10,683 nucleotides of DNA from a virus. Below, piece after piece: positions 2,266-9,460 of this stretch (position 1 is the stretch's first letter; each line of letters opens with the position of its first letter). A program made the translations under genes and the position numbers. The notes under the pieces are model-generated. The model was not told the origin of the DNA and did no database searches. It worked only from the letters and a program-made list of their open reading frames with translations. The DNA is taken from the UHGV virus genome UHGV-0105960, one strand, 5' to 3'.

Positions 2266-3583
2266 TCTCGATATCCTCGTCGGTAATGGATGCCCCGATG
2301 CCGGTGACGTCAGAGTTTTCGCGCAGGTCGGTCATCGCCGCCTTACGCGTCATCAATCCGTCGCCCAGCGCGGTACTGATCGCGTTGGTGGTGTTTACGG
2401 CCACCGTTGATCGGTCAACGTCTGACATTTGCCATAGCGGGTTAAACTCAAACGTGAAATCGTCCGGCAGCGGCTTTCCGAGTTCCGAGCGGTGCATAAT
2501 GTCCAGTATCCGGCGCATCGGCAGTCGTAAGCGGCGCTCCTGCAATGAGCTCACCCGGTCGTAATAGTTGGCGAGGTCTGCATCACCAGTAGAGAAGCCT
2601 TTCGGGGATTGACCGAACAGGCGTACCAGCGGGATACCAACGGCACCGCTGATCTGCTCAGCAAACTGCGAAAGAATGTCATCCAGACCACTAAAGCTGT
2701 ACTGGTGGGTTTCGAACTTATCCCGCGAGTCCATGAGCGTCATACCTTCATTGCTCTGGAACTGGCGGATCAGGTCGATGTTCTTCAGCAACGCTTCGAA
2801 CGCCGGGCCTCCAAGCGCGATAAGCTCGCGCAACTTCTCCACGCTATAGGTACGCAGATGCGCTTTATAGACCAGCTGCGCCGCGCCGACAGTAGCGCTA
2901 TCGAACGCAGTAAGCCGATCCCAGATACGCTCTACAACCGACATTCCCCATTCGTTTTCGGTCATCTTCTGCTGGAATGGCAGCGTGACGCCATCAAAGC
3001 GGATCAGGCGGCTGTGATGGATGCGCCAGGCCGGAATGCCCGTTGCGGTGGTCACCACGTCGTAAAACTCAGGCTTGCCGAGGTCCGGCCCCATCTCTTT
3101 AATGCGGCGTGTCAGCACCGGGTTAATCATCCAGCGGTCGAGCGGGAGAATGCCCTTAAACTTGCCCTCGCCAATGGTTTCGAGTCGCAGCGGGGTCATT
3201 GGTGCTTGCCCCTCGATCATGATGAAGCCGACCGCGCCGCCGTAGAGGCGCGACCATTTCAGCACGTCGTTCAGCGCATCCCAGATCTGCAACTCATCCA
3301 GTTGCGCTTCGAGGGTGCCACGGTCTTTGGCGTCAATCTCCGAAGTGATGCGAATGCCCTTTCGGGTCATATCGTCCGGGATAGCGTCGACCGCTTCACC
3401 GATAACCCACGAACCGCGATATGACCATTCCACCAGCATGCGGTTGCGGCTGGTGAAGTTCGCCCGGTAGGTCGATGCTGAATGCTGGTTAGGCGTCTGC
3501 ATCCCAACGCGGGCGACGAAGTTCTCGTAGCCGTCAGCGGTGGCCTGTGCCGTTCGCTGAGAGGATTGCTTGTTTCGTGCCAT
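2114..3583 (-). CDS. Phage portal protein
   Basis: 489-aa ORF, ATG at 3583 with GGGAGA Shine-Dalgarno; located between the large terminase and the head morphogenesis gene; size typical of portals; Pro/Gly-rich acidic C-terminal tail. Confidence 0.85.
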   Translation of the reverse strand: MARNKQSSQRTAQATADGYENFVARVGMQTPNQHSASTYRANFTSRNRMLVEWSYRGSWVIGEAVDAIPDDMTRKGIRITSEIDAKDRGTLEAQLDELQIWDALNDVLKWSRLYGGAVGFIMIEGQAPMTPLRLETIGEGKFKGILPLDRWMINPVLTRRIKEMGPDLGKPEFYDVVTTATGIPAWRIHHSRLIRFDGVTLPFQQKMTENEWGMSVVERIWDRLTAFDSATVGAAQLVYKAHLRTYSVEKLRELIALGGPAFEALLKNIDLIRQFQSNEGMTLMDSRDKFETHQYSFSGLDDILSQFAEQISGAVGIPLVRLFGQSPKGFSTGDADLANYYDRVSSLQERRLRLPMRRILDIMHRSELGKPLPDDFTFEFNPLWQMSDVDRSTVAVNTTNAISTALGDGLMTRKAAMTDLRENSDVTGIGASITDEDIENAEDEAPPGIGELGDKPPEPPGGDPISNEPTADSAGGRGYRKWSLRWFKR

Positions 3584-7376: not shown

Positions 7377-7691
7377 TCACCCCTGTGTATCACTTGCGAT
7401 CCGCTTCAAGGCCTCGGTTACCACTTCGGCTGAAGCCGGGCGGTCACCTCCAGGCTTTGCGGAGACATCAGCCAGATAACTGGCCAACAGCTGCGTGCGT
7501 TTTTTCTCTTCATCCAGTCGCTCTCGCTCTTCCTTGCGCTTTGCGTAATACGTCTTGATTGTGAAGAAGGCAGAGATCAGGGCGCCAATGATGAAGACAT
7601 AATCCTGCAGACTCAGGACGGAAAAGATACCAAGCAAGGCTGACCACCAGTAAGGCAGATTGTGACCATCGGTTGGGTTCATACGTTGCAT
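7377..7691 (-). CDS. Holin, class II (two predicted TMDs), with dual-start motif; possible pinholin
   Basis: ATG at 7691 preceded by GGAGGTGA. N-terminus MQRM gives two in-frame starts separated by an Arg (lambda S-like holin/antiholin arrangement). Two hydrophobic helices ([30 protein letters not shown]) and a charged C-terminus. The stop overlaps the endolysin start region. Confidence 0.8.
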
Positions 7692-7799
7692 CTCTCACCT
7701 CCGATAATGTTCGGGGTGCTATCTGTAGTCAGTAAAAGGTTCAGGGCCGTCGGGCTGATTTACCAACAAAGCGTCGAGGGTGATTCCCGCGACCCTGAA

Positions 7800-7826
7800 A
7801 ATAAAAAAGCCTGCGGTTAGGCAGGC
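7800..7826 (-). terminator. Intrinsic terminator (minus strand) between the tRNA pair and the holin
   Basis: Perfect 6-bp GC-rich stem GCCTGC/GCAGGC (7809..7814 / 7821..7826) with a 6-nt loop, followed on the minus strand by UUUUUUAUUUU. Confidence 0.55.
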
Positions 7827-7960
7827 AATAAGCATGAGGGTAATAGCAATGTCGGTGATGACCGAAAATACCCTAGCTGGGTCTGGCGGCCTGTGACGCT
7901 GTTGCAGCAACGCCCCTGATAAGTTGGGGTATGAACCCGTTATCAGGTCAGGCCATTATC

Positions 7961-8037
7961 TGGTGCACCATTCAGGACTCGAACCTGAAACCGATAGCTT
8001 AGAAGGCTATTGCTCTCTCCGGTTGAGCTAATGGCGC
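7961..8037 (-). tRNA. tRNA-Arg (anticodon UCU), CCA-encoded, phage-borne
   Basis: Minus-strand sequence GCGCCAT-TA-GCTC...GAGC-A-ATAGC-CTTCTAA-GCTAT-CGGTT-TCAGG-TTCGAGT-CCTGA-ATGGTGC-A-CCA folds as a canonical cloverleaf: 7-bp acceptor stem (one G-U), anticodon loop C-U-[UCU]-A-A, T-loop TTCGAGT. Differs from host argU as I recall it. Confidence 0.85.
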
Positions 8038-8042
8038 TAATT

Positions 8043-8117
8043 TGGCGGGACAGGAAGGATTCGAACCTTCGACCATTCGGTTAACAGCCGAACGCACAAC
8101 CGCTGTGCTTCTGACCC
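8043..8117 (-). tRNA. Probable tRNA-Asn (anticodon GUU), CCA-encoded; one acceptor-stem mismatch, possibly degenerate
   Basis: Minus-strand sequence GGGTCAG-AA-GCAC-AGCGGTT-GTGC-G-TTCGG-CTGTTAA-CCGAA-TGGTC-GAAGG-TTCGAAT-CCTTC-CTGTCCC-G-CCA: cloverleaf with anticodon loop C-U-[GUU]-A-A and T-loop TTCGAAT, but a T-T mismatch at acceptor pair 4:69. Lies 5 nt from the Arg tRNA. Confidence 0.6.
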
Positions 8118-8124
8118 TGAAATG

Positions 8125-8149
8125 AAAAAGGCCGCGAAATAGCGCAGCC
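8125..8149 (-). terminator. Intrinsic terminator (minus strand) immediately upstream of the tRNA pair
   Basis: On the minus strand: GGCUGCG-CUAUUU-CGCGGCC (7-bp stem with one U-G pair, 6-nt loop) followed by UUUUUCAUUU. Confidence 0.55.
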
Positions 8150-8182
8150 CTTAATGCTTTATGGTTTTGCCTGAATTAGGCG

Positions 8183-8209
8183 AAAAAAAGCCCGCTCAGA
8201 GGGGCGGGC
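8183..8209 (-). terminator. Intrinsic terminator (minus strand), candidate tR'-like late terminator
   Basis: On the minus strand: GCCCGC...GCGGGC GC-rich 6-bp stem (8190..8195 / 8204..8209) followed by a run of 7 U (8189..8183). Confidence 0.6.
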
Positions 8210-8487
8210 AGAAGGTAGGAAATACTGATTCTTCAACGGTTCGAGGCGCACCTAATAGTCCGAGCTTCCGATTTACCAGGAGAGCGCTCGTTTTCCGTTA
8301 CTACCTTTTAAACATAGCTGGAGAAGCCGAAACGGCAACCCCACTATCAAATAGCTTATGTAGCATTGCATTATGGTGCCGGGTGCCTCCCGGTGAGCAT
8401 GTCCCAGTCGACATGGCCCGCGCTGCATTTACAGATCACTGTAAGTGACTGGTCGCCCCTCCGCATAGGGGGATTCACCACACGAAT

Positions 8488-8517
8488 AGATTAACAACAT
8501 GTTAATTTTCTGGTCAA
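8488..8517 (-). promoter_or_regulatory. Candidate sigma70 late promoter (pR'-like) downstream of Q
   Basis: On the minus strand: -35 TTGACC (8517..8512), 18-bp spacer, -10 TAATCT (8493..8488). The -10 match is weak; this is a sequence-only prediction. Confidence 0.25.
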
Positions 8518-8573
8518 TAAGATATAAGCAAATGATGACATGCAGTTTTCTTATTGCTGAGTAACTTCAATCT

Positions 8574-8641
8574 GGTTCAGGGCTCTGCGCGGAAGGGCTT
8601 TGACGTGTCGTGCAGCACGTCTCTACCCAAGAGCCCTGACC
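8574..8641. repeat. 68-nt nested imperfect palindrome (outer 12-bp arms with one bulge, inner 6-bp GACGTG/CACGTC stem)
   Basis: GGTTCAGGGCTCT (8574..8586) pairs with AGAGCCCTGACC (8630..8641); inner GACGTG (8602..8607) pairs with CACGTC (8616..8621). ORF-free; lies between the Q stop and the candidate late promoter. Confidence 0.5.
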
Positions 8642-8654
8642 GGATCGCAGGCAT

Positions 8655-8681
8655 AAAAAAGCCCCGGCGGATTGCCGAGGC
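8655..8681 (-). terminator. Intrinsic terminator (minus strand) about 90 nt downstream of the Q stop
   Basis: On the minus strand: GCCUCGGC-AAUCC-GCCGGGGC hairpin (8 bp with one mismatch) followed by UUUUUU (8660..8655). Confidence 0.5.
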
Positions 8682-8770
8682 TAATTTTACAAACTGGTAT
8701 ATGACTATCATCTTCATGCCGCCACTTAAAGTTAAGGCAGCATATCAAAGTAGACTCAAATATGACGTAT

Positions 8771-9460
8771 TTAATTGACTTTTGCAAGACCCTGCTGCGA
8801 AAAAGTCGCTTTTTGTTGTGATCGTGTTCTCACAGCACAGAGAAGAGAGTCGCTATCAAGCCGCTTAAAAATGGCGCACATAGCCCGCCAGTAATCAGCG
8901 TAGTTATGGCACCAGTTATCAGGCTTAACGCCACACAGGGCTGCAAGGTCCTGGTGCTGATATACATACTTACCCGCCAGCTCTGCTTTCACGTCCTGTG
9001 CCGCCAGCCATATCAGTTTCTTCAGCCGCTCCATCGTCTTGCCGGCCACTTTCTTAGCGCCGAGTTGATCACGGAATTCTTCCCATGCCCACTGTGTTAT
9101 CGCTACCTGATACTCAAAGCGGATATTGTCGCTGTAGTTCCACAGCAACCAGGATTTCTGGTGGTCTTCCAGCGACAGGAGGGCGCGGCGCCAGCTGGCT
9201 GTCGAGTATTCAACGGGCAGAACGAGAGCGATTGAGGAACCCTTAGCGCGGGACTGGCTGCCGCTCATCGGCGGTCCATCCGGGTTAACCATTTTTTGCT
9301 TCACCTCGCTATACACCTTCTTCCGGCCACGGCTGCGCGCCGTAGCGGTAAATTGCGCGTTCTCTGCAAAAGCTACCAGTTGCCCTTTCGTCGCACCACT
9401 CAGATCGGCGGTGGCCACTATCAGCTGCTGGCGAACAAATTCCAAGTATTGAGCTGTCAT
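8771..9460 (-). CDS. Late-gene antitermination protein Q-like (229 aa)
   Basis: ATG at 9460 with GGGAGAAG Shine-Dalgarno. Canonical lambdoid position: after rusA and the ylcG-position ORF, before the terminator/tRNA region and lysis genes. Size resembles the larger Q-like proteins of cryptic E. coli prophages. Family assigned by synteny and recall only. Confidence 0.6.
   Translation of the reverse strand: MTAQYLEFVRQQLIVATADLSGATKGQLVAFAENAQFTATARSRGRKKVYSEVKQKMVNPDGPPMSGSQSRAKGSSIALVLPVEYSTASWRRALLSLEDHQKSWLLWNYSDNIRFEYQVAITQWAWEEFRDQLGAKKVAGKTMERLKKLIWLAAQDVKAELAGKYVYQHQDLAALCGVKPDNWCHNYADYWRAMCAIFKRLDSDSLLCAVRTRSQQKATFSQQGLAKVN

Follow-up and report, generated by a model that had tools for sequence, protein, structure and literature searches.

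A probable Q82-type late switch and a long-form STnc100-family sRNA gene downstream of Q in a Klebsiella lambdoid prophage

The 650-bp gap that follows the antiterminator gene Q in a Klebsiella lambdoid prophage probably consists of three modules, each independent and exchangeable and each on the minus strand: a Q82-type late switch, a small RNA (sRNA) gene of the STnc100 family, and a backstop terminator, T2. The window analyzed here is a 10,683-nt stretch of the viral genome UHGV-0105960, and its positions 8118–8770 are confirmed to be non-coding and structured, with three intrinsic terminators on the minus strand. Known kinds of element account for the gap: a late control unit of the Q82 type, and a member of an established sRNA family whose long form is new. 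The new points are limited to a pseudoknot in the STnc100 core, a 3′ domain from Klebsiella phages, and a link to the Salmonella RNA IsrJ. The original prediction, made from the sequence of the window, had proposed either a pR′/qut/tR′ late control region or a small-RNA locus. Both exist, side by side, although several of the parts had been assigned to the wrong one.

Results

Modular layout of the gap

The late region of the prophage reads along the minus strand of the window in the order RusA and YbcO nucleases, Q (8771–9460), the 650-bp gap, tRNA-Asn, tRNA-Arg, holin, lysozyme, Rz, and the terminase subunits. The gap shares 98% identity with its counterpart in Klebsiella phage 2 LV-2017, and megablast analysis indicated that parts of it are kept as separate modules across 57 Klebsiella phage records, with module boundaries at 8790–8567 and 8480–8179. 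Comparison with related prophages, put forward earlier as a way of telling conserved structure from filler, thus shows that the gap is not chance sequence.

A scan of positions 7600–9000 returned five terminator-like sites versus 1.7 ± 1.2 in shuffled sequences, and none on the plus strand. The minus-strand sites at 8682–8660 (9 bp, T6), 8209–8190 (6 bp, T7), and 8152–8127 (10 bp), referred to below as tR′, T1, and T2, match the three terminators that had been predicted at 8655–8681, 8183–8209, and 8125–8149.

Six open reading frames (ORFs) with 40 aa or more overlap the gap, none of them with a Pfam or PHROGs match. The longest, at 8161–8448 on the plus strand (95 aa), is annotated as a "hypothetical protein" in MK448233, as would be expected if the gap encoded a small protein. 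However, in 30 of 37 aligned relatives the interval of this ORF differs in length by amounts not divisible by three, the longest antisense ORF shrinks to 40–60 aa in most of the same 37, and conservation tracks RNA helices rather than codons. With no domain matches and a reading frame that is not kept, protein coding was dropped as an explanation, its probability being close to nil, and the earlier statement that the gap holds no credible ORF is upheld.

A probable late switch that overlaps the end of Q

Q (8771–9460, minus strand) belongs to the Q82 family (Pfam PF06323, E = 1.1e-79), one of three unrelated families of Q proteins (PMC9388147). Relatives were detected by tblastn in 72 phage records, including N15, VP882, and PY54; a sequence search of the PDB returned no relative. 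The last codons of the gene hold the −35 hexamer of a candidate late promoter, pR′ (8759–8787, minus strand), in which TTGCAA (8787–8782) is followed by a 17-nt spacer and the −10 hexamer CATATT (8764–8759). This candidate overlaps the Q stop codon and lies partly outside the interval considered originally; because its hexamers match the consensus at only 8 of 12 positions, it is missed by a simple promoter scan. Transcription would start at ~8752, 7 nt past the −10 hexamer.

Support for this assignment comes from an alignment of the end of Q and the following 230 nt in ten phages whose Q proteins are 52%–98% identical to this one. In these relatives, TTGCAA (TTGAAA in one) lies within the last Q codons and is followed by a 17-nt spacer, a −10 hexamer (CATATT, TATATT, TACATT, or CAGAAT), and exactly 11 nt of varying sequence. 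The motif TGATAT then appears exactly 11 nt past the −10 hexamer in all ten, followed by a hairpin in most of them and by an intrinsic terminator in every one. The positions of the pR′ elements are therefore fixed across the ten phages while the spacer and downstream sequences differ.

In the window, the element past the −10 hexamer is a candidate σ70-dependent pause element of the extended −10 type (8739–8747, minus strand; approximately +6 to +14), composed of TG (8747–8746), A, and TATGCT (8744–8739). With a start at ~8752, the −10-like hexamer TATGCT would occupy +9 to +14. In lacUV5, a −10-like element at +1 to +6 gives rise to a pause at +17/18, and the pause at the pR′ of phage 82 is at +25 (PMC3326312). 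Scaled from the lacUV5 geometry, the position of the hexamer in the Klebsiella unit predicts a pause at about +25.

The candidate pause element is followed by a hairpin within the short late leader (8716–8743, minus strand; AUGCUGCC...GGCGGCAU) and by the intrinsic terminator tR′ (8655–8682, minus strand), which has a 9-bp stem (8682–8660) and a U-tract that runs to 8655. RNAfold gave −36.4 kcal/mol for positions 8650–8765 (z = −3.2), and the relatives from E. coli carry a stem of other sequence (UUUUGCC/GGCAAAA) at the position of the leader hairpin. The tR′ terminator is predicted to end a short late-leader RNA of ~100 nt, the expected product in the lysogen. A terminator ahead of the presumed promoter had been noted as an oddity in the original prediction; given the layout of the ten phages, the terminator at 8682–8655 is simply the tR′ of the upstream pR′ unit.

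Independent support for the late-switch unit is provided by a related locus (L130) whose Q is 72.5% identical to the one studied here. Its predicted pR′-to-tR′ unit is recognized as Rfam isrJ (63 bits versus a gathering threshold of 37), with the isrJ match beginning 16 nt past the Q stop codon and ending at the terminator. IsrJ (RF01393) is an sRNA of a Salmonella Gifsy-1 island, whose consensus has a pause-like element, CUGAUAU, near its 5′ end, and it was mapped experimentally as a 74-nt RNA in Salmonella (PMC2330248). The short late RNA of the window shares only this 5′ element and is an analogue of IsrJ by position rather than a detectable member of the family; membership was rejected after a search of 8110–8800 gave no isrJ match at E ≤ 10.

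Downstream of tR′ lies a long stable hairpin (8560–8654, minus strand; −39.7 kcal/mol, z = −3.8) that travels with the Q/tR′ module and is also present in three other loci (L001, L124, and L129). None of 200 shuffled sequences was as stable as the folded segment 8560–8655. A degenerate tRNA or other known RNA was considered for this hairpin and discarded, as ARAGORN and cmscan against Rfam found nothing there.

The sRNA gene and its promoter

The second module is introduced by an extended −10 σ70 promoter (8488–8517, minus strand), with TTGACC (8517–8512), an 18-nt spacer, TG at 8496–8495 (−15/−14), and TAATCT (8493–8488). This pair fails a simple 9-of-12 promoter scan. Its register is nonetheless widely kept: TTGnnn and TAnnnT occur in the same arrangement in 93 of 205 distinct upstream regions, versus ~5 in shuffled sequences, and among relatives the spacers diverge without shifting the hexamers out of register. 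Moreover, RpoD ChIP-exo peaks have been reported at STnc100 copies of Salmonella LT2 (PMC10794520). We placed +1 at G8481, 6 nt past TAATCT and the first base of helix P1 of the RNA.

A cmscan search identified Rfam STnc100 (RF02076) at 8510–8316 with 79.7 bits against a gathering threshold of 47 (E = 3.7e-16, model positions 1–206), so that the small-RNA alternative in the original prediction is borne out. Canonical loci of the E. coli type score 120–172 bits; the 3′ hairpin/terminator segment of the model aligns poorly to this sRNA. Since +1 is placed at G8481, the start of P1, the first ~30 positions of the Rfam model would correspond to promoter DNA and not to RNA.

The TTGACC/TAATCT pair had previously been put forward as a candidate pR′. 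If so, the RNA would be an enlarged 6S-like late leader for Q, T1 and T2 would form a tandem tR′, and the first terminator would end transcription from pR. Q and the lysis genes do enclose a promoter, a structured RNA, and terminators in the late orientation, and the gap is longer than a minimal control region. However, the sRNA module (8480–8179) occurs without this Q module: it is found behind other Q genes (only 72.5% identical, in L002 and in L130), 75 nt downstream of stx2B in Stx2 phages, and in tandem arrays of up to six. Furthermore, no −10-like pause element follows the pair, the transcript opening directly with P1, and a full candidate unit of promoter, pause element, and terminator that co-varies with Q sits upstream. 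On the grounds of modularity and the missing pause element, we rejected this assignment as very unlikely. The sequence and register of the predicted promoter are thus supported, and the role that fits it is that of driving the sRNA gene. The gap, described in the original prediction as about twice as long as the lambda arrangement, owes this length to an inserted sRNA gene and not to an enlarged leader.

Conserved helices and a probable pseudoknot in the STnc100 core

The STnc100-family core spans 110 nt (8372–8481, minus strand) and comprises helices P1 (8481–8476/8378–8373), P2 (8472–8456), P3 (8444–8429), P4 (8419–8395), and P5 (8393–8379). The conserved GGUGAAU and CCGGGAGGCACCCGG motifs and helices P1, P2, P4, and P5 are all present. 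Several short perfect hairpins had been predicted in the gap, and these are real: they are the P2 and P5 stems of the core together with the long hairpin at 8560–8655.

To sample the family, viral contigs were scanned with an exact pattern and species genomes were scanned in addition; together these searches yielded 201 distinct cores from Klebsiella, Escherichia, Enterobacter, Kosakonia, Raoultella, Citrobacter, Pantoea, Erwinia, Buttiauxella, and other genera. For a test of the structure, 55 diverse cores were aligned with MAFFT, with no fitting to any structure. In this alignment, 83% of cells form a standard pair, a level reached by none of 500 shuffles, which gave 76.3%, and the covariation score is 0.251 compared with 0.139 after shuffling; when the 3′ partners were slid by 1–3 columns, only 44%–49% of cells remained paired. 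Across the 55 members, P1 is paired in 99% of cells and P2 in 97%, with two P2 pairs changed on both sides, and the outer part of P4 is paired in 90%, with three pairs changed on both sides. Compensatory changes in P2 include CCCCC/GGGG, CCUUUC/GAAAGG, CCACC/GGAUGG, and GCCCC/GGGC. P5 is paired in 100% of cells, an invariance partly built in by the search pattern, and it is also invariant in the set of members selected by P2. Folding energies are modest relative to shuffled sequences (z = −2.0 for the whole sRNA and −1.9 for the core); because these statistics are weak, our structural claims rest on covariation and not on energy.

Comparison of the cores also supports a pseudoknot. The strand CCAGUC just after P2 (8447–8452, minus strand) is complementary to GACUGG in the P4 loop (8404–8409, minus strand), and the complementarity is kept with other sequences in other members of the family (CUGGUG/CACCAG, AUCAGCA/UGCUGAU, AAGGUUG/CAACCUU, UUUGAUC/GAUCAAA, and AGACUGACA/UGUCAGUCU). 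A wide-window test did not discriminate, as it captured P3 stems, and a test confined to the P4 loop was used instead. Complementarity was higher within than between sequences (median score 5 versus 3; Mann–Whitney p = 1e-18), and in 34 of 66 representatives the loop outscored shuffled versions of itself (p < 0.05 for each; binomial p = 8e-27). The column-wise test on the MAFFT alignment gave a weaker signal (63.9% versus 58.0%, 0 of 500 shuffles as high), with an ambiguous register at a slide of −1. The pseudoknot is absent from the nested consensus printed by cmscan and goes without mention in the paper most relevant to the STnc100 family.

A long-form 3′ domain followed by terminator T1 and the candidate terminator T2

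The core is followed by a long-form ("K-type") 3′ domain (8210–8371, minus strand), in which a variable hairpin H1 (8347–8314), an A-rich single strand (8313–8291), an invariant hairpin H2 (8280–8251; CCUGGUAAAUCGGNAGCUCGGACUAUUAGG), and a variable linker succeed one another. This domain of ~160 nt is conserved in 38 distinct full-length relatives and has so far been found only in Klebsiella phages and in viral contigs that carry no host name. Core and domain go together: all 114 copies of H2 in viral contigs with enough upstream sequence have a core within 260 nt upstream.

The domain ends at the intrinsic terminator T1 (8183–8209, minus strand; GCCCGC...GCGGGC, U7), whose stem is conserved and whose loop is variable in the 38 relatives. 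The scan revealed no terminator between the core and T1 (8372–8210), and the megablast module 8480–8179, common to many phages, is bounded by +1 on one side and by the end of T1 on the other. Because no earlier terminator exists and the core and the 3′ domain are co-conserved, the sRNA is predicted to run for ~300 nt from G8481 to T1, possibly with processing into shorter species. It is a variant of STnc100, since it has no terminator ~35 nt past the core and the next one is T1.

A second terminator-like hairpin, T2 (8118–8152, minus strand), lies downstream of the sRNA, with a 10-bp stem (8152–8127) and a U-rich tail, and sits 9 nt ahead of tRNA-Asn. A T2-like element (GGCTGCGC..GCGCGGCCTTTTT) is also found 3′ of the sRNA in loci of the E. 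coli type. We infer that T2 is a backstop terminator. The first late-operon cargo past the control region is a tRNA pair (7961–8117), namely tRNA-Asn(GTT) at 8043–8117 and tRNA-Arg(TCT) at 7961–8037, both on the minus strand and both identified by ARAGORN and by the Rfam tRNA model (63.9 and 67.5 bits for the pair).

In the phages that carry both Q and the core on the locus (L001, L002, and L130), and in the published Stx2 case, the core has the orientation of the late operon and lies upstream of late cargo. This could also mean that it works mainly in cis within the Q-antiterminated late transcript, as a site of processing, as an element that confers stability, or as a fold that protects or insulates the tRNAs and lysis genes downstream, and that the sRNA is a by-product. 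The near invariance of the sequence over many genera, beyond what an sRNA that needs only a seed would require, is in line with such a role. However, the promoter is in exact register with P1 and a dedicated terminator follows, and members of the family build up as discrete, Hfq-bound RNAs in cells that have not been induced. We consider a mainly cis-acting core quite unlikely and favor a dedicated sRNA gene.

Duplex predictions for the sRNA and the short late RNA against 13 translation-initiation regions in the window produced no target, all energies lying within about 2 sd of shuffled sequences (z from −2.1 to +1.3), but the duplexes were unrealistically long and the method is uninformative here. 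A convergent anti-sRNA partner was likewise not found in 8110–8800, where AgvB scored 14.2 bits (gathering threshold 56) on the same strand.

Comparison with known systems

The sRNA shares the sequence and helices of its core with STnc100 (RF02076), a family that includes EcOnc27/sRNA103 of EHEC Stx2 phages and to which PasD1 and PasD2 of EPEC are related. It also resembles these RNAs in having its own σ70 promoter and in its location between Q/pR′ and the lysis genes of a lambdoid prophage, in late orientation. STnc100 RNAs are prophage-encoded and multi-copy, with 11 copies in EDL933, and their expression in uninduced EHEC was confirmed by northern blotting (PMC5331693). EcOnc27/sRNA103 is bound by Hfq and is encoded just downstream of stx2B (PMC12711010, PMC4104026, PMC7873438); the family is related to PasD (bioRxiv 2026.05.13.724894), and among the RNAs of CsrA ternary complexes PasD2 ranks first in abundance (bioRxiv 2026.08.12.744399). 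The two forms differ at the 3′ end. In E. coli and Salmonella, the terminator lies ~35 nt past the core and the RNA measures ~170–210 nt in all, whereas the Klebsiella form has a 3′ domain of ~160 nt and a predicted length of ~300 nt. Only the E. coli relatives, whose 3′ end differs from that of this sRNA, are known to bind both Hfq and CsrA; expression with Hfq association is known for E. coli and Salmonella members alone. In addition, the E. coli and Salmonella loci often face a convergent anti-sRNA (AsxR or AgvB, as opposite EcOnc27 and EcOnc06), a partner that this locus lacks.

The late-switch unit resembles that of phage 82 in its Q82-family Q, in a candidate promoter that abuts or overlaps Q, in a −10-like element whose position would suit pausing at about +25, and in a terminator within ~100 nt. 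The two were set side by side by Q family and reported geometry; a literature search for the 82 pR′ sequence returned unrelated papers only. Among the E. coli members found, the closest share 60% identity with this Q.

The original prediction had likened the gap to the lambda pR′, 6S RNA, and tR′. The same logic would apply, and extends to StxS: the late promoter is constitutive, its transcript ends as a short RNA in the lysogen, and read-through depends on Q. The unit itself is probably of the Q82 type and lies upstream, at 8787–8655. Lambda differs in having a Q from a family with no sequence similarity to this one, a pause at +16/17 instead of the predicted one at about +25, and a short RNA of 194 nt instead of a predicted ~100 nt. 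StxS of Stx phages illustrates that a short late-promoter RNA can itself be a regulator (PMC7873438).

Discussion

Based on this layout, we propose a plausible mechanism by which the gap controls late transcription. In the lysogen, both promoters would fire. The late promoter would yield only the terminated RNA of ~100 nt that ends at tR′, while the sRNA promoter would produce the STnc100-type RNA independently of Q. Sy et al. are said to have reported in 2020 that the short StxS RNA acts as a regulator. Transcription of the sRNA would stop at T1 and T2, and the lysis genes would stay silent in the lysogen because of this stop, with T2 shielding tRNA and lysis genes alike from the sRNA promoter. 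The extended −10-like element would hold σ-containing RNA polymerase near +25. Upon induction, Q would load at this pause, and the polymerase that carries Q would read through tR′, T1, T2, and a later terminator and so reach the tRNAs, the lysis genes, and the structural genes.

The sRNA, for its part, would most likely act in trans with Hfq on host or phage mRNAs, judging by homology with EcOnc27, sRNA103, and PasD, and it may also associate with CsrA. Because PasD2 dominates CsrA ternary complexes and the core is near-invariant, there is room for a further role as a protein scaffold. The pseudoknotted core might then recruit a protein, with CsrA as the candidate, and prophages might attach interchangeable 3′ effector tails to it, the Klebsiella 3′ domain being one of them. 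We regard this scaffold reading as unlikely; if it were true, the family would amount to a modular platform for RNA-guided regulators across the prophages of Enterobacterales, in arrays of up to six.

These results provide a map of the late switch of a Klebsiella prophage, indicating which promoter Q should use, which terminators would be read through, and which RNA would be made in the lysogen. Such a map is needed by anyone who engineers or induces these prophages. To the STnc100/PasD family, so far studied in Salmonella and in pathogenic E. coli, these results also add a long form that is common in Klebsiella phages, and they raise two testable points for the family as a whole: that the RNA starts at P1, which would make the 5′ part of the Rfam model promoter DNA, and that the core contains a pseudoknot. 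Finally, IsrJ occupies the place at which a Q82-type prophage should produce its short late-promoter RNA, an arrangement that would tie this virulence-associated sRNA to the late control of phages.

IsrJ and the predicted short RNA of the late promoter

In the Klebsiella phage KO-TP1, whose Q antiterminator gene is 72.5% identical to that of the window, an Rfam isrJ match (L130:2206–2282, 63 bits) forms the counterpart of window positions ~8752–8655 and coincides exactly with the short transcript predicted to run from the late promoter pR' to the terminator tR' of a Q82-type Q. The pause-like element CUGAUAU, a candidate site of sigma70-dependent pausing, is also present within the Rfam isrJ consensus. 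IsrJ has been described in the literature as an invasion-related island sRNA of Salmonella, located between STM2614 and STM2616. Because isrJ occupies the predicted pR'-to-tR' unit in KO-TP1 and its consensus contains CUGAUAU, IsrJ may be a terminated late-promoter RNA of a prophage.

Cargo downstream of tR'

Directly after tR', the window forms a long and very stable hairpin (8560–8655, minus strand; −39.7 kcal/mol, z = −3.8), which co-occurs with the Q/tR' module among relatives and matched neither tRNA nor Rfam families. In the related locus L129, a tRNA array lies directly 3' of its counterpart. The site 3' of the control region is a hot spot for tRNA cassettes: the window carries tRNA Asn(GTT) and Arg(TCT) (7961–8117, minus strand), and three relatives with similar Q genes (L126, L127 and L129) carry the sets Asn-Phe-Thr-Arg, Met-Thr-Gly or Met-Lys-Arg. 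The tRNAs are separated from the holin gene by another 260 nt of non-coding sequence (7700–7960, minus strand), with a further terminator-like hairpin at 7826–7809 (minus strand) and a 63-aa ORF (7719–7910) without a family match.

Genes of the prophage sRNA family STnc100 occur in some prophages as tandem arrays of 3 to 6 copies (L064:4984–7937, L141:1140–2977, L226:6323–7018 and L250:2740–7138), the copies differing mainly in P3, P4 and the pseudoknot sequences. Positions 1 to about 30 of the family model (RF02076) represent the promoter −10 region and discriminator rather than RNA (window 8482–8510, minus strand). PMC12711010 reports two HUS-associated changes 3' of stx2B, at +90 and +103; going by these offsets, both would lie inside the promoter segment of the Stx2-phage STnc100 copy.

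In an Enterobacter hormaechei prophage, STnc100 copies are flanked by Rfam isrI matches (L250:2583–2679 and 3281–3377), isrI being another sRNA family of the Gifsy-1 region. This arrangement suggests that several "Isr" island sRNAs are cargo of one prophage late-region site, the same as that of STnc100.
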